Assembly (NCBI GenBank): GCA_019308685.1
Contig: JAFDHQ010000002.1
Span: 1-52,036, forward strand
Direction: 5' to 3'
Length of the DNA: 52,036 nt
Source: Deltaproteobacteria bacterium
GTDB lineage: Bacteria > Desulfobacterota > Desulfobacteria > Desulfobacterales > UBA11574
The position numbers were made by a program, and so were the translations under genes. The notes beneath the pieces were generated by a model, which did not search any database, had not been told where the DNA came from, and worked only from the letters and a program-made list of their open reading frames with translations. Each line of letters begins with the position of its first letter. Within the stretch, counting starts at the first letter, position 1. Positions 29,540 through 46,607 of the stretch are shown in pieces.

Positions 29540-29555
29540 TGGCCTGAAAATTGCT
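29540..29555 (+). promoter_or_regulatory. Sigma54 (-24/-12) promoter candidate upstream of the first pilin gene
   Basis: TGGCCTGAAAATTGCT has exact TGGC-N7-TTGC spacing relative to the consensus TGGCACG-N4-TTGCW. It lies 88 nt upstream of the ATG at 29643. Confidence 0.55.
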
Positions 29556-29642
29556 TACAGCTTATAAAGGTGAAGATTGTTGATTTTACAAAATAGGTCA
29601 AAAATCACAAACCATTCGTTTACAAAAAGGGGGATCCACAGC

Positions 29643-30317
29643 ATGATCATCACCATGAGGAAAAGGGTAACATATTTCCCGGACAATCGAGGGTTTACAT
29701 TGATAGAGATGGCCATTGTGCTGATCATTATCGGTATTATCATCGGGGCGGTGGTTAAGGGCAAAGACCTGATACGAAGCGCGGAACAGAAGAAGATTTA
29801 TACGAAATATCTGAATGGGTGGCGGACGGGTTATGCCAACTTCTATGACCGAACCGGAAAACGTCTGGGTGATTTTTATGATGAATTGGCTTCAGCAGAA
29901 GGACAGGATGGAAAAGCGGACACCGATAATGGCCATGACGGAAATGTCAGCGATATCGAACGAAAATATCTGAAGACAGGGGATCCGCTGGGAACCGATT
30001 TCAGAGGGTTGGACGATGTCGGCCTTTCGGCACCTTCAACCAACAGCGGTAATTGTTTTGAATACACATACACGGATAAAGATGGCAGCGGTCACACCCT
30101 GTCTGTTGCATTTAAATATGACCGAAAGGACAAATACAATTACATGTGGATTGACGGGGTTCCCAATGAATTGGGGATGGCCCTGGATACCATGATTGAC
30201 AACGAAGCGGATGGAACTTCCGGTGATTTTTTATGTTATAGCGAATCAGATACGGAAAATCAAGACTGGGGCAAGCCATCGACTGAGGTCAGCGCGCGCT
30301 GGAAAATGGATTTTTAA
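29643..30317 (+). CDS. Type IV prepilin / pseudopilin (224 aa, 17-residue leader)
   Basis: Class III signal MIITMRKRVTYFPDNRG|FTLIEMAIVLIIIGIIIGAVV (G-1, F+1, E+5). Two C-terminal Cys (GNCFEY, DFLCYS) are compatible with a D-region disulfide. RBS AAGGGGG precedes the ATG at 29643. Confidence 0.85.
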   Translation: MIITMRKRVTYFPDNRGFTLIEMAIVLIIIGIIIGAVVKGKDLIRSAEQKKIYTKYLNGWRTGYANFYDRTGKRLGDFYDELASAEGQDGKADTDNGHDGNVSDIERKYLKTGDPLGTDFRGLDDVGLSAPSTNSGNCFEYTYTDKDGSGHTLSVAFKYDRKDKYNYMWIDGVPNELGMALDTMIDNEADGTSGDFLCYSESDTENQDWGKPSTEVSARWKMDF

Positions 30318-30322
30318 AAGAT

Positions 30323-30841
30323 ATGTCGGCGATAAAAATTTTTAGATCATGTGTGATGACCGGCGTCCTTGTGATGTTGTTATTGATCGGTGGGCGTTTT
30401 TTTCTAACCGGTTACAAACGCTATGTTGTTAATCAGAACAAAAAGGCGGTATTGACCCGTCGTGCAAATCTTCTGAATCAACAGCAAAGTGAAAGAAAAC
30501 AAAAAATGCATCATATTTTTAGAGTTAACCGTTTTGTAAATAATGCAAAATTGTTGGGATTGGAAAAAAGGAGATGGGCGGTTTACCATGTCGACATACA
30601 GGATGCGGTAACCTTCACGGAGATGAAAAGAAATTTAATGCAGTGTACCAATAGTGCCTCCCGTTATTTCAGGCCGGTCTCTTTTCATATTAAATCGTTA
30701 AAAGCGACCCATAATAATGCAGGAATTGGCAATAAGAATGAGACATCTGAAATGCTTTTTAAAAATAAGACAGGGGATATTTTAATGACTCTCAAAGGCG
30801 CATTTGTCGTCAGGGAAGAGCCAATAACCAATGATAACTGA
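30323..30841 (+). CDS. Bitopic membrane protein of unknown family (possible PilO/GspM/MshJ-like assembly component)
   Basis: One N-terminal TM (VMTGVLVMLLLIGGRFFL), then a basic coiled segment and a roughly 90-aa domain. The call rests on position in the cluster only. Confidence 0.4.
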   Translation: MSAIKIFRSCVMTGVLVMLLLIGGRFFLTGYKRYVVNQNKKAVLTRRANLLNQQQSERKQKMHHIFRVNRFVNNAKLLGLEKRRWAVYHVDIQDAVTFTEMKRNLMQCTNSASRYFRPVSFHIKSLKATHNNAGIGNKNETSEMLFKNKTGDILMTLKGAFVVREEPITNDN

Positions 30842-30865
30842 TTAATAATGGATGATAATCAATAA

Positions 30866-32161
30866 ATGATAAATGATAAAAGACAATTTGCTATTGAGCT
30901 GGATGGGGTTTTATATCACTTATCGGAAAGTCGGCTTAAACAGATTGATGACCTGAATAAAATAAAAGGTGAATTTCGGTTTGTCTCTGATATGCAGGAG
31001 GTTGTTTCCAGAACCATGACCGTTGAAGCACCGGCTAAATATGCGGAATTTGTGGTTCGCAAACGACTTCAAGAATCGGGTGATTTTGATGAGCCGGTAA
31101 CGGTACTTACACACTGGAAAAAGAAGAGAGAAAAGAACACTTGCGATATATTTTTCACTGCGCTCCCTACCCGACGATATCACGCCTACCTCGAGAAGAT
31201 CCGGGGAAATGAAGACGGAGTCATGGCGGTTCCTCTATATTCATTTCTTTATAACATTCTTAAACAAATTCGTACAGAAGATCCGGTTGCAGTCGTATTC
31301 CAGCATGGTAGATTTGCTGACTTGATTATTGGCAAAAAAAAGCAGGTCTACTATTCCAATCGATGCGTAGCATTCGACATGAGTCGTGAGCAGATAGCGA
31401 CACTTTGGGATGCCGTTCGTGCGGACATACAGACCGCTCAGACAGAAAACGGAATAAAGATTAACAAGGTGTTTCAGCTAAACTGGATCGACAGTGGAGA
31501 TTGTTCGGACTGGGCTGAAAAAGGGGAATATGAATCCTACCATTTGGAAGAAGAATCCATATCTTTTAACAATGAAACCTATCATAATTCCTTTTCAAAC
31601 GCCATAAAAAGTCGATCTGGAAACCACGGGATTTCACCGGTAATAGAGAAAATCTGTTTTTTCACACAGAAATGGGCGATGTCGTTGAATATTCTGCTTT
31701 TTGTCTTCTTGCTGGCGGTTTTGGGCGGATATTTAATATGCCAGAAAAAATCAGAACTGCTTGAGAAAGAATTAAAGCAGCTGAATCAGCAAATAGCGGG
31801 ATTTCAGACCGAGTCGTCTTTGGCCACCATTCCCATAAAAAAGTATAAAGAGACCGTCGGCTTTATAAAAGACCTGGCATATTGCAAAAATTCACCTTCA
31901 TATCTAACTGTCGTGAGCGACGTTACGAATGGTCTTTCACCGGACATGGAAACAGAAATCTTTAAAATTGATTATTCACCTGGCAGCATGACGTTAGAAA
32001 TATTCGGACGGATCACATCGACTTTTGACTTTGCACATAAAGGATATCAGCAATTTGTCTCTTTTATGAAATCCAAGGGATATGCCGTGGTGGAAAATAG
32101 ATTTGATACGGATATCGACAACTCAAAATTTCTTGTCAGATTCACGAAGAGGATCGGATGA
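30866..32161 (+). CDS. GspL / MshI (PilM-PilN fusion)-like assembly protein
   Basis: About 270-aa cytoplasmic domain, a single TM (WAMSLNILLFVFLLAVLGGYLIC), a coiled coil (ELLEKELKQLNQQIAGFQ) and a roughly 100-aa periplasmic domain. The topology matches GspL/MshI. Sequence similarity was judged by eye only. Confidence 0.5.
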   Translation: MINDKRQFAIELDGVLYHLSESRLKQIDDLNKIKGEFRFVSDMQEVVSRTMTVEAPAKYAEFVVRKRLQESGDFDEPVTVLTHWKKKREKNTCDIFFTALPTRRYHAYLEKIRGNEDGVMAVPLYSFLYNILKQIRTEDPVAVVFQHGRFADLIIGKKKQVYYSNRCVAFDMSREQIATLWDAVRADIQTAQTENGIKINKVFQLNWIDSGDCSDWAEKGEYESYHLEEESISFNNETYHNSFSNAIKSRSGNHGISPVIEKICFFTQKWAMSLNILLFVFLLAVLGGYLICQKKSELLEKELKQLNQQIAGFQTESSLATIPIKKYKETVGFIKDLAYCKNSPSYLTVVSDVTNGLSPDMETEIFKIDYSPGSMTLEIFGRITSTFDFAHKGYQQFVSFMKSKGYAVVENRFDTDIDNSKFLVRFTKRIG

Positions 32162-32685
32162 AAAGAAAATATCATGGGCTGATATCAATCGTTATTATCG
32201 CTATCCTACTGGTTCCAACGGCGATTTACGCGGTTTATTTTTCTCAGGTTTCCGTGGGCATAGATACCATCGGTTTAACGAAAAATTCACCTGAATTCAC
32301 CGTTCCCGATCAGGCCGTTATTAAAGAGATCTCCCATCTCGAGAAAGAGATGATTCATCTTGTCAACCCCGTAGAATCGGAATCGATAACAGATCGGAAA
32401 ATTCGTTTCTGGCAGTATTCGGATCAATATTATGGTCAGCATACAACAACCGATCGGGGAAATGAAAATGTTAATTCTAAAACAGCATACGCCTTAACCT
32501 TTACATTTGCGTCAGGTGAAAAAAAGTTTTGTATCATAGATGGATCTTTTTATACTCAAAGCGCCGATCTTCCTGACGGCGGAAAAATAATAAAAATAGA
32601 ACCGGGCAGGGTATGGGTGAAAAAAGGAGACGTAACGAAATGGATATTGCTCCCTGAAACTACGAAATGGGGAGAAATGCGATAA
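32158..32685 (+). CDS. PilP / MshK / GspC-like periplasmic protein
   Basis: N-terminal TM. The C-terminal FCIIDGSFYTQSADLPDGGKIIKIEPGRVWVKKGD resembles the PilP/GspC HR-domain pattern. ATGA overlap with the upstream gene. Confidence 0.45.
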   Translation: MKRKYHGLISIVIIAILLVPTAIYAVYFSQVSVGIDTIGLTKNSPEFTVPDQAVIKEISHLEKEMIHLVNPVESESITDRKIRFWQYSDQYYGQHTTTDRGNENVNSKTAYALTFTFASGEKKFCIIDGSFYTQSADLPDGGKIIKIEPGRVWVKKGDVTKWILLPETTKWGEMR

Positions 32686-32812
32686 TTATACCATGACTTC
32701 ACGATTTTATACATCGATTCCAAACCAGCGATAACATTTTCAAAAAGCTAAAGGGTTACGAAAACCCCTATTCTATTTGGTGAGTAAAACAATACATAAT
32801 GCGGGAGTACAT

Positions 32813-34312
32813 ATGAAAAAATTGAATATTATATTAGGGATTGTTTTCTCGATCATTATTTTCGGCTGTGCGGAGAGAGCTCCTAACCTCAAAACATTAT
32901 CACTTCAGACAACTCAAGATCATATTAAGTCCGAATCTGAACAACTGGATGCGGCACAGAAAGAATTTATTCCCAGCTTGGAAAGGGTTTCGCCTCGTGT
33001 GATTCATGAAAAACCCGTTATGCCGCTTTACGACCCTTTGGAAGACCATACCGTTTCCTTTTCTATGATCAATGAAGATCTCAAAGTGATTCTTTACTCC
33101 CTGTCTCAGTCCGTAGGCATGAACCTTATCATTGATCCTGTCATCACTCTTGAGGAAAAACAGCTTACCCTTAATTTTCAAAACGTCTCGGCATCCACCG
33201 TTTTGAGAGAGATACTCAACACCTATGATCTTTATTATGAAATACATGGGAATATTATCCGCATCCGTCCGTTTAAAGAACAGATGTTCAGTCTCGATTT
33301 TCTGGATACCAGAATTAATACCAATTTTAATGTGGGCGGAGACGTGCTCGGTGCGTCCGAGGAAACCACCAGCGGGTTAAAAGGTAAATTTGAACTTTCC
33401 GGTCAGGCAGCCAAACAGGGCAATGACTATGATGTGATCGAGCAAATGATAACTCGGATCATTTCAAAAGACGGAAAATATTCTCTGAACCGGCTGTCCG
33501 GAAGTCTATATGTAAAGGATACACCGGCGATTATCCGATCCATTTCCAAACTCATCAATCATTTTAAAAGGATGTTGTCCAGACAGATACTTATTGAAGC
33601 CAGAATTATCGAGGTCGGACTCTCGGACAAATATGAATATGGTATCGACTGGAGTGTACTGAGAGACGAGGCGGCGTCATTAACAACAAAAACCAACGTT
33701 GCATGGTCATTGGGTTCCGGACTGGTCTTAAGTCATGAAAATAATGAGGTGTCCATTGATTCGGCCATGGATGCGCTGGAGACGTTTGGAAAAGCAAAGG
33801 TTGTGTCTAACCCGAGTATACGCGTCAAACATGGAAAACCGGCACTAATCAGTGTTGGGACCTCCTTTACATACAAAAAAACTGTGGAGACGACGCGCGA
33901 AGTCACTTCGGGTACTGACAGAGAAATTACAGATGTTGAAGTGTCAACCGTATTTGACGGGCTTATTTTGGGGGTTATTCCCTTTATCGGAGAAAATCAA
34001 AGAATTTCCCTGCTGATTAATCCCATTAACAGTTCCGTGAATCGAGAAAGTCTTGAACCGAAAAGTGTCGGAGGAGGGAGTCAGGAGATATCCTTGCCTG
34101 AAGTTAGAATTAAAGAGATGAGCACGACCATTGAGCTTGAGGATGGAGATGTCGTGGTGCTGGGGGGTCTGATCGACGACATTCAAACGACGCAGGAAGC
34201 CGGGGTGCCCATTTTGTCAAGACTGCCGATTCTCGGCTATCTTTTTAAAAATGAATTAAAAAGCGTGGAGTCAAAGGAACTGGTTATTATTTTAAGTGTA
34301 AAATTGGTATGA
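32813..34312 (+). CDS. Secretin (MshL/PilQ/GspD family), predicted lipoprotein
   Basis: Lipobox SIIIFGC after MKKLNIILGIVF. Secretin core RQILIEARIIEV, AKVVSNPSIRVKHGKPALISVG and VVVLGGLI...GVPILSRLPILGYLF. RBS GGGAG precedes the ATG at 32813. Confidence 0.88.
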   Translation: MKKLNIILGIVFSIIIFGCAERAPNLKTLSLQTTQDHIKSESEQLDAAQKEFIPSLERVSPRVIHEKPVMPLYDPLEDHTVSFSMINEDLKVILYSLSQSVGMNLIIDPVITLEEKQLTLNFQNVSASTVLREILNTYDLYYEIHGNIIRIRPFKEQMFSLDFLDTRINTNFNVGGDVLGASEETTSGLKGKFELSGQAAKQGNDYDVIEQMITRIISKDGKYSLNRLSGSLYVKDTPAIIRSISKLINHFKRMLSRQILIEARIIEVGLSDKYEYGIDWSVLRDEAASLTTKTNVAWSLGSGLVLSHENNEVSIDSAMDALETFGKAKVVSNPSIRVKHGKPALISVGTSFTYKKTVETTREVTSGTDREITDVEVSTVFDGLILGVIPFIGENQRISLLINPINSSVNRESLEPKSVGGGSQEISLPEVRIKEMSTTIELEDGDVVVLGGLIDDIQTTQEAGVPILSRLPILGYLFKNELKSVESKELVIILSVKLV

Positions 34313-35286
34313 GCGTCATATTTAAGACATTAAAAAAGCTTAAAACCGAATCTGCAGATCGGGGAAAAAGCAGAAAAAAACCAGTGCATAGAAAAAGAGT
34401 CTACTCTTTTAAAACCGTACTCAATTCTCCTTTGTCTGTCCTTTTGTTGCTTTCCGGTTTTATGGTTATTGGAGCAGGAACTCTTTACGGATATTTTCAG
34501 TTTCGTGATGCAACGGGGAAAACGGTCAAAGGTTTTTCCATATCAAACACAGAAATTCATCGGTCAACGGATGTCCGTCTTGACAGAAGCATCGAGAATA
34601 GAGGGACAGAAAGTCTGAATGGGGCGAAGCATTCCGACTCGATTCAAATTGAATATCAGCCTTCGGAGGGACAGGATCACAGCATTAAGACATTCAAAAT
34701 AAGTAAACCCGACAATGTCCAGACACCGCTCATAGTGACAAAGGAAAAAATTTCAGACGCAAAGGAATCATTTAAAAAGGATGCTTTTGCTGAAATCCAA
34801 ACCCAGAAGACAGGCAAACTTTTATCAGCAGAAGTTTTACCGGTTTCCGGCGTAGAAAAGATTTTTCTCGCAAATGCAAAGAAAAACGCAAAAATCGCTC
34901 GGCTGGTAGCGGATATCCGCTGGGAGATGCGCCACGGAAATAAAAAGCGCACCGAAAAACTTCTTGATGAACTGGCGTTGAACAAGGGTCAAAACAACAG
35001 CTATGTACTCAAGTTAAAAGCCGTCTACCATATACGCAACCAAGAATATGAACGCGCTGCAGATTTACTGAAAACAATCCTTACCAAAAATGAAAGTGAT
35101 TTAGAAGCCGGAATCAATATGGCAATTGTGGAGATCAATACCCAACAGGAGAAAGAGGCCTATCGGCGATTGGAAAAACTTCAAACCATTTATCCGGAAC
35201 ATATACGTTTGGCTGAAATAATGCAAAATTTAAGATTATTGTTCAACAAAGATCAAATCCGACGTTTCGGTCGGCATGATGGGTAA
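34309..35286 (+). CDS. TM-anchored TPR-repeat protein (MshN-like)
   Basis: Basic N-terminus with one TM. The C-terminal roughly 120 aa shows a TPR-like pattern (YVLKLKAVYHIRNQEYERAADLLKTIL...). ATGA overlap with the secretin stop. Confidence 0.55.
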   Translation: MSVIFKTLKKLKTESADRGKSRKKPVHRKRVYSFKTVLNSPLSVLLLLSGFMVIGAGTLYGYFQFRDATGKTVKGFSISNTEIHRSTDVRLDRSIENRGTESLNGAKHSDSIQIEYQPSEGQDHSIKTFKISKPDNVQTPLIVTKEKISDAKESFKKDAFAEIQTQKTGKLLSAEVLPVSGVEKIFLANAKKNAKIARLVADIRWEMRHGNKKRTEKLLDELALNKGQNNSYVLKLKAVYHIRNQEYERAADLLKTILTKNESDLEAGINMAIVEINTQQEKEAYRRLEKLQTIYPEHIRLAEIMQNLRLLFNKDQIRRFGRHDG

Positions 35287-35288
35287 GG

Positions 35289-36860
35289 GTGATGCATATG
35301 ACTACTGCTTTGGCAAAAGAAGAACAAGGCTGTCTCGATTTTTTAGGGTTATATCACAATCCTTTTCCGGTAGTTCCGGAGGAGGAAAACTTTTATTTTT
35401 CCGAACATATCCAGAAAATCCTAACTGAAATCATCTTCGGGGTTCACGCGAGAAAAGGATTCATGGTTCTAACCGGAGAAGTGGGCCTTGGCAAAACCAC
35501 CATCAGCCGAAGGATAATAAACCTTATCGAAGAAAAAGGGGTTGAGACCTCACTGGTATTTTATACCGGTTTTAAAGACGTCGAACTGATACGGGGAATA
35601 AACCGGGATTTCGGACTGACCGCAGACAGCCTCCTTTTTAGCGATCAAATGCAACTGTTATATGATTTTTTGGTTGAGAAAAATCGTTGTGGAAAAAATT
35701 GTACCATCATTATTGATGATGCACAGAATCTCGATTTTAAAAGTCTTGAACTTATCCGAATGATTTCAAACCTTGAAACCAGTGGGGAAAAACTGGTTCA
35801 AATTTTACTGGTGGGTCAACCGGAACTCATTCATTTGTTGGATTCTAAAGAACTGAGACAGCTCAGGAGTCGAATTGTTATCCAACAAGAGGTGAAAGCA
35901 CTGACACCGGAAGAACTAAAGGACTATCTTTATTTTAAACTGAATCTGGCCGGAAACAGAGGACATATCCGAATTCAAAAGACGGCTTTGAATAAAATCT
36001 ATAAACTGACCCAAGGGAATTTCAGACAGGTTAATCTGTTGATGGACAGGTGTTTGTATGTTGCGTTTCTTCACAACACATTAGAAATTAACAGAAAGAT
36101 TGTTGTCGAAGCCTTTGTTGATCTTCATCCTAAAAAACTGAAACTTCTGAAAAAGCCTCTAACCTTAATGGCATCCATTTTCATTGTGCTGTCCTTATTT
36201 GGCGGAATGGTTTACTCCGGTTTTAGCCGGGATATTTCTTCTACGTCTTCGAACATTAAAACTTATGCCACACCAAAGGATAATAGCGATCGACTGGAAT
36301 TGGGCCCCGCCAAACAAGCTTTGCAAATAACAGATCTCAATCTGGATAAAGAACCGAATGACTTGGGACAACATTCCGTTATTCCCGAGTCTGTGATTAA
36401 TTTTTTGGATGAATATAAACTTTCTAATTATCGAGACCCTTTTTTTGAAGCTTTAGAAACGGGACGGTTTCAAGAGTTAACGGAAGAGATATTCGAAAAA
36501 ACAGGATATATGTTGGTCCGACTGGATCATGTTTCAGATCACATTCAGAACGCATATGGGACCCTCAGGTATGTTTCGAACCTCATAGGCCATCAACAAT
36601 TCTATCTGTTCTGGCGTCCTCCGCTAATATTCACAAAATTTTATTATTATTATCAAGGAGAAGAGATTTTAAAACTCCAAAAGATGATGGCAAAAATTAA
36701 TCTGTATTCCGGTCTTCTCGATGGAATCGTCGGTAAAAAGCTGATGCTGGCGGTCGTGAACTATCAGGAACAGGCGGGACTTTCTGTGACCGGATATCCG
36801 GATGAAAAAACCATTTTCCTTTTATGCCATGAGCTGGAAAATCTAAAAAATGAAACATGA
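35289..36860 (+). CDS. ExeA/GspA/MshM-like AAA ATPase with a C-terminal peptidoglycan-binding domain
   Basis: Walker A GEVGLGKTT and Walker B IIIDDAQ, a central TM (LMASIFIVLSLFGGMVY), and a C-terminal PG_binding_1-like LYSGLLDGIVGKKLMLAVVNYQEQAGLSVTGYPDEKT. Confidence 0.8.
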   Translation: MMHMTTALAKEEQGCLDFLGLYHNPFPVVPEEENFYFSEHIQKILTEIIFGVHARKGFMVLTGEVGLGKTTISRRIINLIEEKGVETSLVFYTGFKDVELIRGINRDFGLTADSLLFSDQMQLLYDFLVEKNRCGKNCTIIIDDAQNLDFKSLELIRMISNLETSGEKLVQILLVGQPELIHLLDSKELRQLRSRIVIQQEVKALTPEELKDYLYFKLNLAGNRGHIRIQKTALNKIYKLTQGNFRQVNLLMDRCLYVAFLHNTLEINRKIVVEAFVDLHPKKLKLLKKPLTLMASIFIVLSLFGGMVYSGFSRDISSTSSNIKTYATPKDNSDRLELGPAKQALQITDLNLDKEPNDLGQHSVIPESVINFLDEYKLSNYRDPFFEALETGRFQELTEEIFEKTGYMLVRLDHVSDHIQNAYGTLRYVSNLIGHQQFYLFWRPPLIFTKFYYYYQGEEILKLQKMMAKINLYSGLLDGIVGKKLMLAVVNYQEQAGLSVTGYPDEKTIFLLCHELENLKNET

Positions 36861-38511
36861 TAAAAAATTAAAGCCCTTGGGTGTGGTTTTAAAGGAAAAG
36901 GGGCTTATTACAGAAGAGTATATCGGGTATGCGTTACAAGAGCAGAAGATCACCCGGGAGAAAATCGGAGAAATATTAGAGCGGCTTGGATTCGTTACCG
37001 AAAACGATATTGTTGTTGCTTTATCTGAACAGAGTGGCGTTCCCTATATTGATGTGGACACCCTTTTGCCCGAAGAAAATATTCTGAAACTTTTCAATAA
37101 AAAAATGTGTCTCAACAATATTTTTCTTCCATTTCGCAAAACAGACAATTTCCTGGAGATCGCAGCACATAATTTGATCGATGAAAAACTCGGGCAGATC
37201 ATTTCAAGACAGACAGGGCTATTACCGAAAATTTATATTTCGGAACGCAGAAAAATTATTCAAGCCATCAACAAATTTTATTATTTTCTTGAAAATCCGG
37301 TTGAAAAACTCATTGAGAAAGAAGTCTACCTTCTTTCCCAGAACGAGGAAATGGCCAGAGGGTTTGATAGTTTAATTAAACATATCTTGCATCTTGCAGT
37401 AAAGATGCGGGCCACGGATATCCATATCAAACCGATGAAACTGTCTACCAATATTGCCTTTAGAGTAGACGGCGTTATAACATCGGTCTTATCCCTGCCG
37501 GTTGCACTGAACAGAATTGTCTCCAGCCTCAAAATGAAAGCAGACATGGATATCGCCGAACAGAGACTGCCACAGGACGGTCGATTTTCGGAAATCATTT
37601 TGAACAATAATTATGATTTCAGGGTGTCCACGATTGTTTCGCCCCTGGGGGAGAGCATGGTTCTTCGCGTCCTTGCCATGGAAAGTTCTGTTATGGGATT
37701 GGAACAGCTCGGCTTCTTTAAAGAACATATCCAAACCATAGAAAAAATGTTCAATGAACCTTTCGGAATAATTTTACTCACCGGGCCCACCGGCTCCGGA
37801 AAGTCGACAACGCTCTTTTCCGGTATCAGAAGACTCAATCTTCTCCAGAAGAATACCATTACCGTTGAGGAGCCCATTGAATTCGATATCCCTTTGCTGC
37901 GGCAAACTCAAGTCAACGAAAAGGCCGGTTACACCTTTGCCAACGCTATCCGTTATTTTTTGCGCCATGATCCGGATGTCATTCTGGTGGGTGAAATACG
38001 GGATTCCGAGACGGCCGCCACTGCTGTTACCGCAGCAATCACAGGCCATCTGGTCCTTTCCACCATGCACACAAACAGTGCGGTTGGAACCATTCCCAGA
38101 TTGATGGATTTAGGTATTCGTCCTTTTTTAATTGCCGACTCCCTTGTCGGGGTGGTGAGCCAGCGACTTGTTCGCAAAATATGCGAGAACTGCAAAACTG
38201 TCTACGCTCCCTCTGAAAATGAGAAGACATATTTAAAAGATCCTGATATTAAAGAACTTTATCAAGGGAAAGGATGTGAATTATGCAGTGGATCAGGTTA
38301 TTTTGGAAGGACTTTGGTGTATGAACTCCTTACCATAGATCAGAAGCTGTCCCAGCTGATTGAGAAGGGAGCTGATTTGAGTGTTGTTTCGCAGTCGGCA
38401 AAAGAATTGGGTTTTGATGATGTTTTTGAAATCACGCGAAATAAAGTGAAACAGGGGGTAACCACAACAGAAGAAGCAACGCGCGCCTTGGGTCACATCA
38501 GACAAATTTAG
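36850..38511 (+). CDS. Type IV filament assembly ATPase (GspE/PilB/MshE family) with an N-terminal MshEN domain
   Basis: Walker A GPTGSGKST, Walker B ILVGEIRD and tetracysteine CENC...CELC. Two tandem 24-residue MshEN motifs at residues 9-32 and 38-61. Confidence 0.93.
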   Translation: MKHDKKLKPLGVVLKEKGLITEEYIGYALQEQKITREKIGEILERLGFVTENDIVVALSEQSGVPYIDVDTLLPEENILKLFNKKMCLNNIFLPFRKTDNFLEIAAHNLIDEKLGQIISRQTGLLPKIYISERRKIIQAINKFYYFLENPVEKLIEKEVYLLSQNEEMARGFDSLIKHILHLAVKMRATDIHIKPMKLSTNIAFRVDGVITSVLSLPVALNRIVSSLKMKADMDIAEQRLPQDGRFSEIILNNNYDFRVSTIVSPLGESMVLRVLAMESSVMGLEQLGFFKEHIQTIEKMFNEPFGIILLTGPTGSGKSTTLFSGIRRLNLLQKNTITVEEPIEFDIPLLRQTQVNEKAGYTFANAIRYFLRHDPDVILVGEIRDSETAATAVTAAITGHLVLSTMHTNSAVGTIPRLMDLGIRPFLIADSLVGVVSQRLVRKICENCKTVYAPSENEKTYLKDPDIKELYQGKGCELCSGSGYFGRTLVYELLTIDQKLSQLIEKGADLSVVSQSAKELGFDDVFEITRNKVKQGVTTTEEATRALGHIRQI

Positions 38512-38517
38512 ATTGGC

Positions 38518-39756
38518 ATGATGAATTACTTCAGATATAAATTGATCGCTCCCAACGGAAAGCCTTCCTCGGGCCTCATTAAACTCCCCTACCAGGATGA
38601 AATTTCTACGGCGTTATATCTGGAAAGAAACGGCAGTATGGCGATCCATGTATCCAAACTGGGGAAGCTTGCATCGCTCTTTTCGAAGTTAAGTTCGTTT
38701 AGACTCTTTAAACGACTGAAGCGCACGGATCAGGTAGAACTGCTCAATAATCTTTCTCTTCTCCTCCGATCCGGCATGCCCTTGACGACCTCACTTGAAG
38801 AAGCTGCACAAGCCACGGAACATCCCGGGCTTGCAAGCAAGGTCCAGGATATTGTGGCCGCTATCCAGGGCGGCATGTCATTTTCAGAAGCAGCAACCAA
38901 ATTCAGCGATATTTTCACGGAAACGGTGATCTGTCTTATCCGAATCGGAGAAGAGACCGGCAGACTCGATGAGATGTTAAAAGATGCATCAGATCATGTT
39001 AACCGCGTTCACACGATTATCAGTGACACCAAAAGAGCGCTTTTGTATCCGGTTTTTGTGTTTGTTTCAATAGGGTTCGGCCTGGCTTTTTGGCTTTACT
39101 ATGTGGTGCCGAAGATTCTTGAGCTTTTTAAAGAAATGAATGTTGCTCTGCCTACAATTACAGTTTATCTTTTAAAAGTATCTGATTTTTTTCAAGACTA
39201 TTTTGTTGGCTTGTTCATGGGATTTTTCCTGACCCTTGTCGGCCTGTTCGCTGCCCGAAAAGGAAGCCGGCAGTTCAGAAAAATCATCGATTGGATAATG
39301 ATCAAGCTTCCTGTCGTCGGAGCTATTGTTACGGCTTCAAATCTTGCCCATATTACAGAATACTTTTCTCTGTTAATGAAAGCCGGAATTAATATCCTGC
39401 AAGCCATAAAAATTTTAAGTGAAAGCGTTAGGAATGAAATATATCGAGACAAGCTCAGCCAAGTCCGGAAAGCCTTAAAAAAAGGGAGTAGTATTTCAGA
39501 AGCCTTTGGGGAGGCCATTGTTTTTCCGACCTTTGTTATACGGATGATAAGTGTCGGCGAAGTCAGTGGAACACTTGAAGATCAGTTGGGCCACATCTCG
39601 GGGGAATACAGTAAACGGCTGTCAAATTTAGTATCAATGATCGGAAAAATGATCGAACCCATCGTCTTGGTAGTGGCCGGTGCAATCTTTGCCGTTATTT
39701 TTTTGGCGCTGCTTCTTCCGGTTTACGATATGGTCAGTCAGGTTGGCGGCATGTAA
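38518..39756 (+). CDS. Type IV filament platform protein (GspF/PilC/MshG family)
   Basis: 412 aa with two GspF repeats (LLRSGMPLTTSLEEAA / LMKAGINILQAIKIL) and 3 TM segments. Confidence 0.9.
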   Translation: MMNYFRYKLIAPNGKPSSGLIKLPYQDEISTALYLERNGSMAIHVSKLGKLASLFSKLSSFRLFKRLKRTDQVELLNNLSLLLRSGMPLTTSLEEAAQATEHPGLASKVQDIVAAIQGGMSFSEAATKFSDIFTETVICLIRIGEETGRLDEMLKDASDHVNRVHTIISDTKRALLYPVFVFVSIGFGLAFWLYYVVPKILELFKEMNVALPTITVYLLKVSDFFQDYFVGLFMGFFLTLVGLFAARKGSRQFRKIIDWIMIKLPVVGAIVTASNLAHITEYFSLLMKAGINILQAIKILSESVRNEIYRDKLSQVRKALKKGSSISEAFGEAIVFPTFVIRMISVGEVSGTLEDQLGHISGEYSKRLSNLVSMIGKMIEPIVLVVAGAIFAVIFLALLLPVYDMVSQVGGM

Positions 39757-39842
39757 GGGGATATTTAATACCATTTGAAATGTTTATGTTTTTAATAACA
39801 AAAGTATTACAAATTATGAAAAACACATTTCATTTTTATAAA

Positions 39843-42545
39843 ATGAGTAAAAATTCAAACCCGAAAGGATTTACTCTCATTGAAATGGCGGTGGTACTGG
39901 TAATCGTGGGAATTATTATATCCATCGTGGCGACGGTTTTGCCTTCTTTGATTAAGTCTTCCAAGATCAAGAAAGCACGGTCCGTATTGGAACAAGTCGA
40001 TTATGCGATCCAGGGATATGTGGCGGCCAATGGGCGACTGCCTTTTGCGGATAAAGGAATCTCCGGGGAAGAAGATTCTGAGACACCCACGTATTTCGGG
40101 AATCTTCCTTTCATTACACTGGGTCTTTCCTCAGGCGATGATGCATGGGGTAACCGATTGAAATATGGTGTGAACGAAGATTTGACAACCACGAACGCTG
40201 GAAACCTGGGGGATGCATTAAAAACAGCATGTTCGGATGATCCGGTGAATCCTGGAAAACTTCACGTAAATATCAACGGCACATTGACACATATGGCGTA
40301 TATTATGGTCAGCGGCGGCTCCAAAGATGAGGATGGCGTCGGCGGGTTTTTCGATGGATTAAACCGGTTTGACGATGCGATTTATGATGATCCAAACCGG
40401 ATCATTGAATCCGGTACTTATGATGACCTGATTATTGCGAAAGCATGCACCGTATTGGCCGGGAGCCAAGGCTACGGTTCAGGAGACGGTAACGGTGATG
40501 ATAACAGCGATGGAACGTCGGAAATCTGTGATACCGATGAAGATGACGATGGTGACGGATATGTTAACTGTGAGGATCAGGATTGTTTCAATGACCCCAT
40601 ATGCGGATCAGGGGAGAATGTTCGGATTATGACCACTTCTATTCCGTCCGGCCATGTAAACAGCAGCTATTCAACGACGATCCATGCAACCGGAGGTACC
40701 ACACCCTATGAATGGACCTTGACCGACGACGGTAATTTTTCCAACCTGTTTCTTCACACCTATCTCGGCCAATTGTCGGGAACACTCGATCAGTGTCCCG
40801 GCACGTATACCATTTCGGTCCAGGTGCAAGACTCTGATACAGACAATGATCCGGATCCTGATCCCAGCAATTTCACCCTACAGGTAACCAGCAACCTGTT
40901 CGTGTCGCGAACCAGCGGGTCCAGCGTAGACATTACATGGAACAGCCCAACCCAGCAGGAAACCTTCCAGGCCAACGGCGGGCATCTTGGAGATATTCAA
41001 TGGACCCTGGATACCGGCGGCGCCACCGGTTTTACGGTATCTTCCACAGGCAGTAATACGTGTACCATCAAAAAAAGCGGCACCACTGATGAGGGGACGT
41101 ATACTTTTACACTAACCGCCACAGATTCCAGCTGTTCAAGCAATACGGCCCAGATAATCCTGAGCATAACCGTGTTGTCCAGCGCCGGTGGTGCACCCTA
41201 TACGGTGGATTTGTCTGCCGAATGGCACATGGACGAATGCAGCTGGGACGGCACATCCGGAGAGGTTCAGGACTCCGGGGGAGAAGGCCTTGATGGGACG
41301 GCGAAAAATGGTGCAACACCCGTGGGTTCCGGACAAATTTGTAATGCAGGATATTTTGACGGGACCAATGATTATTTGGACATGGGCGACATCTTGAACA
41401 ATGTTTTCGGCACCGGCAGTAATTCGTTTACTGTGGCTGCATGGATCCGGCCCTTTTCCTTAAGCGGCTCTCAAACAAATCATAGGACCCAAAACTGTTT
41501 CGTGGCCAAAGCCTCAGACTCCGATAACGACAATTTTGAAATGGGTGTCAACACCAATGGCACCATTCATGTGTATATTGATACCTCAGGACAGGACAAG
41601 TACGCTGACTTTGGTGTGGCCGACAGTATCGGTGTGGGGGTCTGGAGTTTTGTGGTTGTGACGTATGACAGTGGTGTTGTGGCTGTGACCATTAACGGCA
41701 GTCGATACGAAAACACAAGCACCTGGAGTGGCGGAGGGAATCTGGATACCGCTTCAGGCAGCCTGTTTAGCATTGGCAGTTCCCAGCATATCGACAACTA
41801 CTTTTTCGGTAAGATCGATGAAGTCATGGTCTATTCCAAGGCGTTGACCGATGCAGAGATAACCAGCCTCTACACCTTGACCCACACCTGTTCAGGATCG
41901 TGCTACACCGGGCCAACGGCCGTTTATTACATGGACGAGAGCATCTGGAACGCGGGGACGCCTGGTGACGTCAAGGATTCATCCGGTAATGGCTATCATG
42001 GTACACCCTATGGAAGTGCGGCGATCAATACCGCTGACAGCCATATCGGGAATTCCGGGGAATTTACCAGCAGCAACGGCACCATCGATATCACAGGTCT
42101 TCCGGTCTCAACCGCTTCCGGAGATCAAACCACGGTGACGTTTTGGATGAAATGGCTGGGCGGTAACAGCCAGATGCCCATCGGGTGGACCTCCTATGAT
42201 CTCTGGTTCGAAGGTGACCGTTTTGGTTTTAATACCGCGGGGGGAGATATATACGGATTTACCGGAGCATCTGCAAAGCTTGCAAATAACTGGCACCATA
42301 TTGCTGCGATATTTACCAACAGCGGCACAACCCAAAACAGTCTTTTCATCGACGGTGTGGAACAGTCCCTGAGCACGGTTCGAGGATCGGGTCATGGAAA
42401 CCGGACGGTGGGTTCAAGTTTCAGGATCAGCGGATGGATGAATAATTCAAGTTATAAGTTAAACGGCCTGATCGATGAACTCAGAATATACAACAGAGGT
42501 CTGTCTGCCAGCGAAGTTTCGGACGACAAGGATTTAACCCATTAA
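39843..42545 (+). CDS. Giant prepilin-adhesin fusion: class III signal and pilin head, Cys/Asp-rich module, Ig-like repeats and two LamG (concanavalin-like) domains
   Basis: MSKNSNPKG|FTLIEMAVVLVIVGIIISIV. CDTDEDDDGDGYVNCEDQDCFNDPIC at about 40470-40615. He_PIG-like IPSGHVNSSYSTTIHATGGTTPYEWTL. LamG-like blocks at about 41195-41900 and 41915-42545 (FDGTNDYLDMG ... GKIDEVMVYSKALTDAEI; NGLIDELRIYNRGLSASEV). The start is ambiguous among 39780, 39816 and 39843. Confidence 0.85.
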   Translation: MSKNSNPKGFTLIEMAVVLVIVGIIISIVATVLPSLIKSSKIKKARSVLEQVDYAIQGYVAANGRLPFADKGISGEEDSETPTYFGNLPFITLGLSSGDDAWGNRLKYGVNEDLTTTNAGNLGDALKTACSDDPVNPGKLHVNINGTLTHMAYIMVSGGSKDEDGVGGFFDGLNRFDDAIYDDPNRIIESGTYDDLIIAKACTVLAGSQGYGSGDGNGDDNSDGTSEICDTDEDDDGDGYVNCEDQDCFNDPICGSGENVRIMTTSIPSGHVNSSYSTTIHATGGTTPYEWTLTDDGNFSNLFLHTYLGQLSGTLDQCPGTYTISVQVQDSDTDNDPDPDPSNFTLQVTSNLFVSRTSGSSVDITWNSPTQQETFQANGGHLGDIQWTLDTGGATGFTVSSTGSNTCTIKKSGTTDEGTYTFTLTATDSSCSSNTAQIILSITVLSSAGGAPYTVDLSAEWHMDECSWDGTSGEVQDSGGEGLDGTAKNGATPVGSGQICNAGYFDGTNDYLDMGDILNNVFGTGSNSFTVAAWIRPFSLSGSQTNHRTQNCFVAKASDSDNDNFEMGVNTNGTIHVYIDTSGQDKYADFGVADSIGVGVWSFVVVTYDSGVVAVTINGSRYENTSTWSGGGNLDTASGSLFSIGSSQHIDNYFFGKIDEVMVYSKALTDAEITSLYTLTHTCSGSCYTGPTAVYYMDESIWNAGTPGDVKDSSGNGYHGTPYGSAAINTADSHIGNSGEFTSSNGTIDITGLPVSTASGDQTTVTFWMKWLGGNSQMPIGWTSYDLWFEGDRFGFNTAGGDIYGFTGASAKLANNWHHIAAIFTNSGTTQNSLFIDGVEQSLSTVRGSGHGNRTVGSSFRISGWMNNSSYKLNGLIDELRIYNRGLSASEVSDDKDLTH

Positions 42546-42614: not shown

Positions 42615-42928
42615 ATGAAGGTGCATTTAAAATTTGATAAATCGGATCCTAAGGACACACGTTTTACAGTGGTTATTGATGACGCGCCTTGTGGACGGCT
42701 GTCCATGACGACCGAAGATGCCGTTAGAGTGGCTGATATCGTCAAATCAGGGTGCTCACAGTATCAATGCGATTTTGAATCTTCCGGCAAGTTATACAGA
42801 TCCGAAAGTTTTGTGGTCTGGCATAAAGTTTTGTGGTCTGGCATAAAAGGAGTGGTAAGGAAAGAAGGAGCGGACAGGATCGAAGGAAGAGCCAAGATCG
42901 AAGAAGCGGTAAAGACAGGAGAAATTAA
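42615..42928 (+). CDS. Small protein with a C-terminal DRR-repeat tail. Its reading frame is broken by a 20-bp tandem duplication, so as sequenced it reads through into the next gene.
   Basis: RBS GGGAGAG precedes the ATG at 42615. Removing one 20-bp copy gives ...VVWHKRSGKERRSGQDRRKSQDRRSGKDRRN* with the stop at 42926-42928. Confidence 0.5.
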
Positions 42929-42938
42929 CGGAGGGCTT

Positions 42939-43426
42939 ATGGAAATCAAGACGGTCAAGATTGAAAAAACTGATGATTTGAATATGATCTTAGGACATTC
43001 TCACTTTATCAAGACGGTCGAAGATGTCTATGAGGCCATTGTCAATACCGTGCCGGGAGCGAAATTCGGTCTGGCATTTTGTGAAGCTTCGGGTCCGTGT
43101 CTGGTGAGATATACCGGCACAGATAATGATTTGATTGAATTGGCAAAAAAAAATGCCTATAACCTTTCGGCCGGTCACAGTTTTATCATTTTTATGAAAG
43201 ACATGTTATGTTTCCCGTAAATGTTTTGAATACGATCAAGAACGTTCCGGAAGTCTGCAGAATTATTTGCGCCACGGCCAATCCTGTGGAAGTCTTGCTT
43301 GTAGAAACAGAGCTGGGACGAGGAATCGTGGGTGTTATTGACGGATTTCGCTCAGAAGGAATTGAAACCGAAGAGGATATTACGGAACGAAAGGAGTTTT
43401 TGCGGACCATCGGGTATAAGCAGTAA
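42939..43426 (+). CDS. Adenosine-specific kinase family protein (PF04008-like), frameshifted by a 5-bp tandem duplication
   Basis: [57 protein letters not shown]...[11 protein letters not shown] continues as [29 protein letters not shown]...GVIDGF in the other frame. RBS GGAGGG precedes the ATG at 42939. Confidence 0.8.
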
Positions 43427-45190: not shown

Positions 45191-45282
45191 TTGCTGAACT
45201 CGGAGCCCACTAAAAAATGTTGATTTTTACAACATATAATAATAAGCATAAGAAATCAAATGATAATCATAGAGGTGATTCA

Positions 45283-45666
45283 ATGGACGATAGAAGAAAA
45301 TTTATACGTTTTCCGGTAAGGCTCAGTGCTCGGTATTCAAAAGAGAACCAAGATAAATGGAATCAGTGTTCCATCATAAATATCAGCCGGGAGGGTATGG
45401 GGGTTGTTGCATTCTTGAAGGAGAAAATCCGTTCGGGTTCTATTCTAAATTTAATGATAGATGTTCCGGGAAAAAAGGCATCGGTTTTTGTATCCGGGAC
45501 TCTGACTTGGATTAAAGCGCTTGAGGGAGATCCGGAGTTTAGTTATAAAAGCGGCATTCAAATTATCACCATAGATTCTGAAGACAAGTGGATACTGCTT
45601 GATTATTCTTATGAGGCATGGAAAGAGGGTAGGGAGGGGGATAAGACTTGCGATACCGTTAAGTAG
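45283..45666 (+). CDS. PilZ domain protein
   Basis: RRKFIRF (RxxxR) and NISREGMG (NxSxxG). RBS AGAGGTGA precedes the ATG at 45283. Confidence 0.7.
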   Translation: MDDRRKFIRFPVRLSARYSKENQDKWNQCSIINISREGMGVVAFLKEKIRSGSILNLMIDVPGKKASVFVSGTLTWIKALEGDPEFSYKSGIQIITIDSEDKWILLDYSYEAWKEGREGDKTCDTVK

Positions 45667-46142: not shown

Positions 46143-46607
46143 TTATTCCTTCTCTAAACATACGGTAATTGTAAAGCTCCCGGCGTCGGTTTTGAAAGGG
46201 ATGGCTATCCTGGGGCCTTTTGTCAACGATTCGAGCTTATGGTTTTTTCCGGTAATTACCGAGGGGATGGCGCCATGAAACAGTTTGCCCATTTCCTCCA
46301 ATTCTTTTCTTGCCTGTCCGGATATCATGTTGGTTATTTCACCCACAGCATCTGAAACCTCATCGTTTAATTCATTGATTTCCTCTCCGAACATGCTTGA
46401 AACAATTTTCAATATGCATAATTCATCAAAGGTAACGGAAACCGTCCCATTTGTTTCGCCGGTAAACCCGATAACCCCGGAAACATCACCTTTCGCAACA
46501 TTATCTTTTTTAAGGTAAGGCTTTCCTGCTTCGGATTTGGTAAATGCCATTGTTTCAAGAACATTCATGGTCGCATTGATAAATGGATTAACCATTTTTA
46601 CATCCAT
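46143..46607 (-). CDS. cheX: CheX/CheC-family chemotaxis phosphatase-like protein
   Basis: 154 aa. DAVGEITNMISGQARKELEEMGKLFHGAIP approximates the D/S-x3-E-x2-N-x22-P motif (21 residues counted by hand). N-terminal VNPFINATMNVLETM. Confidence 0.7.
   Translation of the reverse strand: MDVKMVNPFINATMNVLETMAFTKSEAGKPYLKKDNVAKGDVSGVIGFTGETNGTVSVTFDELCILKIVSSMFGEEINELNDEVSDAVGEITNMISGQARKELEEMGKLFHGAIPSVITGKNHKLESLTKGPRIAIPFKTDAGSFTITVCLEKE

Follow-up and report, generated by a model that had tools for sequence, protein, structure and literature searches.

Introduction

Only a handful of type IV filament families are distinguished, and these are known mostly from pathogens among the proteobacteria. 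Here we analyse a cluster of ten genes from a Desulfobacterales bacterium (lineage UBA11574), located in a 52,036-nucleotide stretch of DNA (GenBank assembly GCA_019308685.1, contig JAFDHQ010000002.1, positions 1 to 52,036; hereafter the window), and compare it with the MSH pili and the type II secretion systems (T2SS), whose parts it resembles. As predicted from its genes, the cluster is a complete and conserved envelope-spanning type IV filament machine, with its core parts present, of a distinct lineage related to MSH and T2SS.

In the generic model of the superfamily, a GspE/PilB ATPase and a GspF/PilC platform protein are co-localised with at least one class-III pilin and, in diderms, with a secretin (Denise et al. 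2019). The Pul system of Geobacter and Pelobacter, a T2SS that secretes OmpB, comprises pulF-E-M-N-O-P, the liposecretin PulQ, PulG and OxpG (PMC3543383). In two type IVb pili, TCP and CFA/III, one minor pilin forms a homotrimeric tip (PMC13533445; for CofB also PMC8179133). Modular type IV pilins are defined by an N-terminal class III signal and pilin module joined to a domain that is not specific to type IV pili (Raynaud et al. 2021, PMC8179133). They are widespread, with PF13385 (LamG/ConA-like) and PF05345 among the frequently grafted modules, and have been argued to be adhesins exposed at the tip (PMC8179133).

Results

Ten tightly packed genes combine MSH-like and T2SS-like parts

Between positions 29577 and 42545 of the window, ten open reading frames (ORFs) lie on the plus strand, with no competing long ORFs on the opposite strand (Table 1). 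All ten genes (29643–42545) are intact, co-oriented and tightly packed: 5 nt separate pilin 1 from g02 and 24 nt separate g02 from g03; g03 and g04 overlap by 4 nt, the secretin and TPR genes by 4 nt and the ExeA-like and ATPase genes by 11 nt; and there are spacers of 2 nt between the TPR and ExeA-like genes, 6 nt between the ATPase and platform genes and 23 nt between the platform gene and pilin 2. The one larger gap lies between g04 and the secretin gene (91–127 nt, depending on the start codon), and a promoter and terminator scan of the cluster found no internal terminator of note. A first-pass annotation, made from the sequence alone, had described ten co-oriented, mostly overlapping or abutting genes that form a compact MSHA/T2SS-like filament cluster with an unusual component set. 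The junctions agree with this description (three overlaps, and spacers of 2–24 nt), as do the domain and profile matches, and nearly all of the gene identities proposed at that stage hold.

The cluster contains what the generic superfamily model demands. Of the features that mark MSH systems, it has an MshL-type secretin and a homologue of MshM, which is mandatory in the TXSScan model; it has neither an ATPase in the MshE clade nor the minor pilins MshB/C/D/O/P plus MshQ. Measured against T2SS models, its proteins fall short of the cutoffs for GspD (103 against 351 bits), GspE (445 against 630), GspF (259 against 424) and GspG (42.6 against 88.9), and Pfam and NCBIfam searches found no GspC (HR plus PDZ), GspM or GspH/I/J/K, with weak T2SSB/T2SSC matches in the g04 family. 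Type IVa pili fare no better, as PilB and PilQ score under their cutoffs and PilT is not in the window. Neither a prepilin peptidase nor PilT was found among the window ORFs, as first annotated; MSH loci generally lack pilD, so this absence is no peculiarity (PMC6668835). Because MSH-like and T2SS-like matches are spread across its parts, the system is, at the level of domains and profiles, a mosaic of MSH-like and T2SS-like characters. It is neither a canonical MSH nor a canonical T2SS, and we found no studied cluster identical to it. Its building blocks all come from known families, and its general function is predictable.

Table 1. Predicted features of the filament cluster (window positions) and of a pilin-like gene in related loci (locus positions).
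Feature	Position	Strand	Basis or remark
Sigma-54-type -24/-12 element TGGCCTGAAAATTGCT	29540..29555	+	about 100 nt upstream of pilin 1; putative function
Pilin 1, prepilin	29643..30317	+	N_methyl 32.6 bits, TIGR02532; proposed major subunit
g02, 172 aa, bitopic inner-membrane protein	30323..30841	+	conserved in 30+ loci
g03, 431 aa, GspL/MshI-type assembly protein	30866..32161	+	AlphaFold2 fold and Foldseek
g04, 175 aa, bitopic, C-terminal GspB/GspC-HR/PilP/MshK-like domain	32158..32685	+	family-wide weak matches
MshL-type lipoprotein secretin	32813..34312	+	Secretin 123 bits, STN 30 bits; lipobox IIFGC
Membrane-anchored TPR protein, MshN/TadD-like	34309..35286	+	TPR_19 and other TPR matches, residues 220-307
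ATPase of ExeA/GspA architecture	35289..36860	+	AAA_22 76.5 bits, PG_binding_1 39.6 bits
Assembly ATPase, MshEN N-domain and GspE/PilB-type core	36850..38511	+	T2SSE 381 bits, MshEN 43 bits
Inner-membrane platform protein, GspF/MshG/PilC family	38518..39756	+	T2SSF 172 bits, two repeats
Pilin 2, giant modular prepilin, 921 aa	39780..42545	+	N_methyl, Laminin_G_3 x2, He_PIG, PKD
165-aa pilin-1 paralogue, related loci	L013:7933-8430; L016:8042-8545; L022:8036-8533; L023:7753-8247		

Resemblance to described systems

How does the cluster compare with systems that have been described? Like the MSHA locus of Vibrio cholerae (mshHIJKLMNEGF-BACDOPQ), it is a single locus without a prepilin peptidase or a retraction ATPase, and both encode an MshL-type liposecretin, an MshM-like AAA protein, an MshN-like tetratricopeptide repeat (TPR) protein, an MshEN ATPase and a PilM–PilN/GspL-type fusion that is MshI-like by predicted fold, in a similar order (I..K-L-(M,N)-E-G). 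Several differences emerged: (i) there are two pilins here but seven pilin or pilin-associated genes there, and no MshD/O/P (PilIJK-type) protein or MshQ here; (ii) the MshM homologue has a transmembrane (TM) segment and a peptidoglycan (PG)-binding domain, whereas Vibrio MshM lacks both; (iii) the M and N genes have traded places, and profile comparison links neither g02 nor g04 to MshJ or MshK; and (iv) the core of the ATPase does not belong to the Vibrio MshE clade, and a separate canonical MSH-like cluster coexists with the system studied here. The earlier comparison with the order mshI-J-K-L-M-N-E-G is thus approximate: besides the swap, a small TM protein precedes the I-like gene.

T2SS with GspAB/ExeAB (Escherichia coli Gsp, Aeromonas Exe) share with the cluster the architecture AAA, TM and PG_binding_1, a GspB/GspC-HR-like protein (g04), a GspL-like protein (g03), a GspF-like platform and a GspG-like pilin module (pilin 2). 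In contrast to these systems, the cluster has no GspC-PDZ, GspM, GspHIJK or GspE N1E domain, its secretin is short and it includes a giant adhesin-type pilin. The Pul T2SS is likewise a compact deltaproteobacterial system; its secretin is a lipoprotein, and it makes do with two or three (pseudo)pilins. Going by its published description, Pul differs in gene order, has separate PilM/N/O/P-like genes rather than a GspL-like fusion, lists no ExeA-like or TPR genes and has no modular pilin.

With type IVb pili (V. cholerae TCP with TcpB, CFA/III of enterotoxigenic E. coli with CofB) the cluster shares one ordinary pilin and one larger pilin with C-terminal beta-rich or lectin-like domains, a long leader, a mature pilin of about 200 aa, a layout in one operon, the absence of PilT and a single minor pilin, which is thought to prime assembly and form the tip. 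The machinery, however, is not of the type IVb kind (BfpD and type IVb secretin scores are low) and the mature N-terminus is Phe, and we would read the resemblance as a functional analogy. The modular pilins PilB and PilC of Streptococcus sanguinis (PMC8179133) combine, like pilin 2, a class III signal, a small pilin module and a grafted adhesive module, which in PilC is a ConA-like lectin. Here, by contrast, LamG domains (as many as five) and Ig-like spacers build proteins that reach 1833 aa, the machine is MSH/T2SS-like and belongs to a diderm host, and the modular pilin would be the sole non-major pilin of the system.

The assembly ATPase falls into a separate clade

The core of the assembly ATPase carries Walker boxes and a tetracysteine motif and is 37% identical to MshE and 45% to EpsE. 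Its hhalign match to MshE is strong (P=100; Vibrionaceae profiles of 65–79 sequences per family were used for the comparisons with Vibrio, and the E. coli gsp and hof loci were also compared), and it scores below the equivalog cutoff for PilB (449 against 676 bits) as it does for GspE. BfpD reaches only 134 bits against the ATPase, compared with 330–390 bits for GspE and PilB. A first tree, built by neighbour joining from 376 core columns, united the Desulfobacterales ATPases in a monophyletic group with 100% support; none of its 300 replicates joined them to Vibrio MshE, and 65% placed them with GspE. The sister relationship to GspE dissolved after nearer relatives were added. In the enlarged neighbour-joining tree, the ATPase clade is set apart with 100% support from GspE, Vibrio MshE, PilB, PilF, HofB and the second ATPases of Desulfobacterales. 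Its members come from Desulfobacterales, Desulfovibrionales, Dissulfuribacterales, Marichromatium, Rhodanobacteraceae and another gammaproteobacterium. Searching 1.84 billion cluster representatives with HMMER returned a single sequence more than 50% identical to the ATPase (next best 48% and 47%), and the nearest database ATPases are annotated merely as 'GspE/PulE family'. The proposal of a distinct, uncharacterised branch is thus supported by the 100% bootstrap of the clade in neighbour-joining trees and by its single relative above 50% identity.

The ATPase's N-terminal domain matches the structure of the MshE N-domain (5htl, E 5.5e-7), and the protein passes the c-di-GMP-motif model NF053729 (55.9 bits, cutoff 38). 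The MshEN consensus is a tandem 24-residue motif, RLGxx(L/V/I)(L/V/I)xxG(L/V/I)(L/V/I)xxxxLxxxLxxQ, with a relaxed form beginning [RKPN]hG (PMC5013675). Both 24-residue motifs can be read in the ATPase, PLGVVLKEKGLITEEYIGYALQEQ and KIGEILERLGFVTENDIVVALSEQ; they fit the relaxed consensus and are strongly conserved across the clade (about 45 orthologues). The ATPase may thus be activated by cyclic di-GMP (c-di-GMP) through its MshEN domain.

For the platform protein, the best NCBIfam model is GspF, under the cutoff as given above; its blastp scores for MshG (142 bits), HofC (125 bits) and GspF (121 bits) are about equal, and hhalign matches it to MshG with P=100.

The secretin is of the MshL type

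The secretin ORF opens with a TTG at 32777, and its likely start is the ATG at 32813. The protein passes the MshL equivalog TIGR02519 (258.1 bits, cutoff 250.2), whereas it lies far below the cutoffs for PilQ (132 against 284), for GspD and for the type IVb secretin (91 against 288), and likewise for SctC. Its hhalign match to Vibrio MshL has P=100. It is short, without N2/N3 domains, and the Cys that follows the signal peptide is conserved in all readable orthologues and in Vibrio MshL.

Two further proteins are encoded directly behind it. The TPR protein is matched to MshN with P=68 and to the TPR protein of a rearranged Desulfovibrionales relative (see below) with P=95, and the Marichromatium TPR protein is also homologous. 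The ExeA-like protein consists of an AAA_22 domain (residues 55–184), a hydrophobic segment (about 291–312) and a PG_binding_1 domain (456–509). MshM matches it with P=100 by hhalign and with 103 bits by blastp, E. coli GspA with 37 bits by blastp; V. cholerae MshM has only 281 aa. Thus, the protein matches GspA/ExeA in architecture and lies nearer to MshM in sequence, and orthology with GspA is not implied.

Fold prediction places one of three accessory inner-membrane proteins

The products of g02, g03 and g04, the second to fourth genes, have no Pfam or NCBIfam match and their database homologues are all annotated 'hypothetical' (214 of them for g03); their family profiles gave nothing significant against PDB sequences. 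All three had been considered too diverged to assign by eye. The AlphaFold2 model of g03 (pLDDT 82.9, from a 56-sequence alignment) consists of a cytoplasmic actin-like domain, a TM/coiled-coil segment and a periplasmic ferredoxin-like domain of the PilN/PilO/GspL type. A Foldseek search of the PDB paired the N-terminal domain with the EpsL/GspL cytoplasmic domain (1yf5, E 3.8e-7, TM-score 0.54 on target), PilM (5eou) and FtsA, and the C-terminal domain with PilO (2rjz/5uvr) and the periplasmic domain of XcpY/GspL (5n7l). Since both domains find such matches, g03 is, by its predicted fold, a GspL/MshI-type protein, a PilM–PilN-like fusion, in agreement with the first suggestion. At the profile level its match to Vibrionaceae MshI is weak (P=21).

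For g04, thought at first to be PilP/MshK-like, the matches are weak but consistent across the family: among 24 orthologues, 17 matched Y4YQ_C (best 1e-5), 10 matched T2SSB (best 4.7e-6) and 5 matched T2SSC; the family profile matched GspC (7oio) weakly; and a homologue from a sister system (D163) bridges g04 (P=89) and MshK (P=77). We tentatively place g04 among the PilP/GspC-HR/GspB secretin-binding domains because of these matches and this bridge, and the first label is only partly confirmed. We propose it as the putative secretin connector.

According to its AlphaFold2 model (pLDDT 72.7), g02 combines a long TM/coiled-coil helix with a small beta-alpha-beta-beta domain. Foldseek found no significant structural match to it and sequence searches found no relative; a weak link to a Desulfovibrionales protein (D153) has P=75. 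Profile–profile comparison of g02 and g04 with Vibrio MshI/J/K, E. coli GspB/C/L/M and HofM-P gave nothing. By topology and position alone, and with no family assignment, g02 is topologically like PilO/GspM/MshJ.

Two prepilins, one of them modular

Sigma-54 promoters are common in front of pilin genes. A -24/-12 element had been read before the first pilin gene. Its pattern, TGG[CT]-N8-TGC, is shared by 15 of 31 related loci, where it likewise stands upstream of pilin 1; the background rate is 0.09 per 500 nt. Pilin 1 has a leader of 17 residues (MIITMRKRVTYFPDNRG; the mature protein begins FTLIEM) and a mature protein of 207 aa. The long leader, also pointed out at first reading, assumes initiation at 29643, where the ATG has a GGGGGA Shine-Dalgarno sequence in front. 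Orthologues of pilin 1 were found in 31–33 loci and are constant in size. Because it is encoded by the first gene, lies behind the conserved sigma-54 element and keeps its size, pilin 1 would be the shaft subunit. Readings of it as an e-pilin or as part of a competence system were set aside on a weak argument, namely that pilin 1 is a 207-aa globular pilin and that no DNA-uptake genes are linked to it.

Pilin 2 begins with a GspG-like pilin module (TIGR01710 GspG, 42.6 bits over residues 29–129), of which about 65 N-terminal residues resemble E. coli GspG by profile comparison (P=96). An acidic, Cys-rich linker follows, then two Ig-like domains (about 40635–41156) and two LamG/ConA-like lectin domains (about 41358–41861 and 42111–42524). 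With N_methyl, two Laminin_G_3 (PF13385), He_PIG and PKD matches it falls under the definition of a modular type IV pilin. LamG-bearing prepilins are already described as one of the commonest modular architectures (PMC8179133). Among orthologues the N-terminal module is conserved and the C-terminus variable, with lengths of 227–1833 aa and 0–5 LamG domains. At one extreme, in Desulfobacula-type loci, pilin 2 is an ordinary pilin of 227–248 aa; at the other, the 1833-aa protein carries five LamG domains plus pentaxin and Ig-like domains. The gene adjoins the platform gene in essentially every locus reaching that far, and its strand varies between species.

A six-frame scan of the whole 52-kb window found only two class-III signal motifs, so the statement that only two pilin-type genes are present, without a minor-pilin set, was correct for the window. 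In related loci there is at most a third pilin-like gene. It encodes a 165-aa protein, lies between the TPR and ExeA-like genes of most distant relatives (37 loci) and is absent from the window's subclade (Table 1). The protein is a paralogue of the pilin-1 globular domain (hhalign P=96.9) and has an N-terminal hydrophobic helix without the GFTLIE cleavage motif; it is thus an uncleaved pilin-1 paralogue. Is the LamG adhesin displayed or secreted? Both had been entertained. Since pilin 2 has a class III signal and a pilin module, it is expected in the fibre, which makes display plausible and secretion unlikely. The lectin domains of pilin 2 probably make the fibre sticky.

The gene order is conserved mainly in Desulfobacterales

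The order pilin 1-g02-g03-g04-secretin-TPR-ExeA-like-ATPase-platform is kept in about 40 loci found through the ATPase. A search with g03 brought more loci with the same nine-gene order, amounting to 62 species representatives, mostly metagenome-assembled genomes (MAGs) of Desulfobacterales and including Syntrophales and Desulfosarcinaceae MAGs; an isolate, Desulfatitalea alkaliphila M08but (NZ_JALJRB01), has the full set. The genomic neighbourhood of the cluster varies between subclades, and the 22 loci for which 9 kb of upstream sequence was inspected showed no linked conserved regulator, pilD or pilT. A literature search on MSHA-type pili in Desulfobacterales returned nothing relevant. The cluster also occurs in Desulfobacteraceae bacterium Eth-SRB2 (L007, RPGQ01000036.1), a partner in an ethane-oxidising consortium, where its genes are often split into short ORFs; these may be assembly frameshifts or real decay.

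Rearranged relatives extend this range. In a Desulfovibrionales MAG (REDL01000058.1, L225:225-9941) the order runs ExeA-like, ATPase, platform, the three homologues of accessory genes g02/g03/g04, secretin and TPR, with no pilin seen in the 13-kb contig piece. In Marichromatium sp., a purple sulfur bacterium (JAGGNG010000001.1, L305:1-11713), it is secretin, TPR, ExeA-like (PG-binding), platform, three pilin-2-type genes (858, 405 and 398 aa), one pilin-1-type gene (227 aa) and ATPase. As in the window, SecA and an M23 peptidase are encoded near the Marichromatium cluster. The first attribution of the lineage to sulfate-reducer-like bacteria therefore fits most of the loci, which are mainly from Desulfobacterales, but not Marichromatium or the Rhodanobacteraceae in the ATPase clade, which also includes Dissulfuribacterales.

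At five loci (L238, L252, L253, L265 and L244; about 6.5–21 kb each) we found a second, canonical MSH-like cluster, with secretin, MshM, MshE, MshG, an MshA-like pilin and 3–4 minor pilins, among them a prepilin of about 1060–1090 aa. Four of the five come from genomes that also hold the system studied here (the MAGs of loci L026/L191, L212, L194 and L015); the fifth is from a Desulfatitalea sp. MAG. Because a canonical MSH-like cluster resides in the same genomes, the system studied here is a separate, paralogous machine.

Base composition and neighbouring genes

The block had been judged more A/T-rich than its flanks. This was not so: its GC content is 43.1%, compared with 44.2% for the window, 43.3% for the upstream flank and 41.8% for the downstream flank, and pilin 2 is the most GC-rich gene of the cluster (48.9%). 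GC and GC3 ruled out an A/T-rich, horizontally acquired island.

Housekeeping genes make up both flanks: FolD, an M23 peptidase, SecA, ClpA and Aat are encoded upstream, and downstream come an adenosine-kinase-like gene with a frameshift and then the genes for a PilZ protein, CheX and GuaA. The adenosine-specific-kinase-like gene (42615-43426), just 3' of the cluster, is split: ORF 42615-43220 covers positions 1-84 of Pfam PF04008 and an overlapping ORF in another frame (43208-43426) covers positions 84-154, a frameshift that reflects either a sequencing error or a pseudogene. The stand-alone PilZ-domain protein (45217-45666, plus strand) and the CheX phosphatase (46143-46607, minus strand) lie 2.7–4 kb downstream of the cluster. 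A link between this pair and the c-di-GMP-type ATPase is possible; the pair is not conserved at distant loci. Elsewhere in the window, an 883-aa ORF (6689-9340, plus strand), by appearance a fusion, joins GCV_T and SHMT domains and adjoins gcvH and gcvP1/P2.

Discussion

What is the function of this machine? With slightly better than even confidence, we regard it as a c-di-GMP-gated adhesive pilus in which pilin 1 forms the shaft and the modular pilin 2 primes assembly and sits at the tip. Transcription would start at the sigma-54 promoter before pilin 1, and both prepilins would be cleaved by a prepilin peptidase whose gene lies outside the locus, as it does for all MSH loci. The ExeA-like PG-binding protein, the TPR protein and the GspB-like g04 would help the liposecretin to cross the peptidoglycan and assemble, and an alignment complex of g03, g02 and g04 would couple the ATPase and platform to the secretin. 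c-di-GMP would switch the ATPase on via the MshEN domain. Pilin 2 would then prime assembly, probably as a homo-oligomer like TcpB/CofB and hence at the tip, and pilin 1 would build the shaft behind it. The Ig-like stalk and two LamG domains of pilin 2 may bind carbohydrates or other surface ligands, resulting in c-di-GMP-controlled attachment.

A tip role for pilin 2 is suggested because its size and modules vary, because pilin-2-type genes outnumber pilin-1-type genes 3:1 in Marichromatium, because modular pilins have been argued to be tip-exposed (PMC8179133) and because TcpB/CofB set a precedent for a homotrimeric tip (PMC13533445). We also counted the strand flips of the pilin 2 gene between species toward a variable, tip-type role.

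Several points weigh against an adhesive pilus of this kind: (i) the lineage is known from sequences alone; (ii) the minor pilins of the co-resident MSH-like clusters could act in trans, so two pilins may not be sufficient; (iii) the choice of the major pilin is indirect, and the pilin-2 module, not pilin 1, resembles the major pseudopilin GspG; (iv) the first residue of each MshEN motif is Pro or Lys, not Arg, and since Arg9 is important for binding in V. cholerae MshE (PMC5013675), c-di-GMP binding is not assured; (v) g02 has no detectable relative in sequence and Foldseek searches; and (vi) the ATPase trees are neighbour-joining trees with a small reference set and without T4bP, Com and Tad outgroups.

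Three other explanations compete with the adhesive pilus of pilin 1 and pilin 2. The system could be a divergent canonical MSHA pilus that obtains its minor pilins (equivalents of MshB/C/D/O/P/Q) in trans, from the second MSH-like cluster or from type IVa pilus genes; we consider this unlikely. Two complete machineries in one genome argue for separate functions, and a dedicated pilin 2 is kept beside gspF in essentially all loci that extend there. The secretin does pass the MshL model, and MshM-, MshN-, MshE(N)- and MshG-like parts occur in a similar order, but the ATPase never joined Vibrio MshE in the 300 replicates and stands apart, with 100% support, from the MSH-like ATPases of the same genomes; nor did profile comparison link g02 or g04 to MshJ or MshK. 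MSH loci never encode the peptidase, and the same genomes do hold a canonical MSH-like cluster with 3–4 minor pilins, both of which speak for such a divergent MSHA.

Could the machine instead be an atypical T2SS, whose short pseudopilus, made of pilin 2, pilin 1 or both, would drive folded periplasmic proteins out through the secretin? Pul provides the precedent of a system with reduced pseudopilins and a liposecretin that secretes OmpB (PMC3543383). The pilin-2 module is GspG-like, the platform scores best with the GspF model, proteins that are GspL-like, GspB-like and of GspA architecture are present, and the first, smaller tree put the ATPase with GspE at 65% bootstrap. That grouping was gone once taxa were added, however, and the T2SS equivalogs all score far under their cutoffs. 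Moreover, no GspC-PDZ, GspHIJK or GspM was found, the secretin is short and MshL-type, the N-domain of the ATPase is MshEN rather than the GspL-binding N1E, and a lectin-bearing pilin of 921–1833 aa suits an exposed fibre better than a periplasmic piston. We rate an atypical T2SS as more doubtful still.

Least probable to us is that pilin 2 is the main structural subunit, with pilin 1 minor or regulatory, or that both co-polymerise: past the N-terminal helix, likeness to a major (pseudo)pilin (GspG) is confined to the pilin-2 module, pilin 2 is an ordinary 227–248 aa pilin in Desulfobacula-type loci and heteropolymeric type IV pili are on record (PMC10628169), but subunits of 900–1800 aa with such extreme variability in size and modules would be hard to pack helically, the gene flips strand, and Marichromatium has three pilin-2 paralogues for one pilin-1-type gene.

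A bolder proposal, which we put forward tentatively and would not expect to hold in full, goes beyond the adhesive pilus itself. The cluster and its Desulfovibrionales and Chromatiaceae relatives may form a separate filament family with the rank of MSH or T2SS, in which the PilIJK/GspIJK tip complex is replaced by a GspG-derived modular pilin that both primes assembly and carries interchangeable lectin modules. Such filaments would be c-di-GMP-gated, and their retraction, if any, would proceed without a dedicated PilT. If true, the family would have arrived by convergence at the solution of type IVb pili, which use one minor pilin.

In this lineage, MSH-type and T2SS-type parts have been recombined, in a stable and widespread form, with a minimal set of pilins, and g02, g03 and g04 are three accessory families currently without a Pfam model. 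The most interesting point is whether a machine related to type IVa pili, T2SS and MSH can run on one major and one modular minor pilin. If two pilins suffice, the system would be a simple natural one for priming without the PilIJK/GspIJK complex, and would also show the swapping of adhesive modules on a pilin scaffold. A cultured host, Desulfatitalea alkaliphila M08but, makes the system testable. The cluster is a candidate device for c-di-GMP-controlled attachment in sulfate reducers of sediments, among them relatives of Eth-SRB2 and other syntrophic partners.

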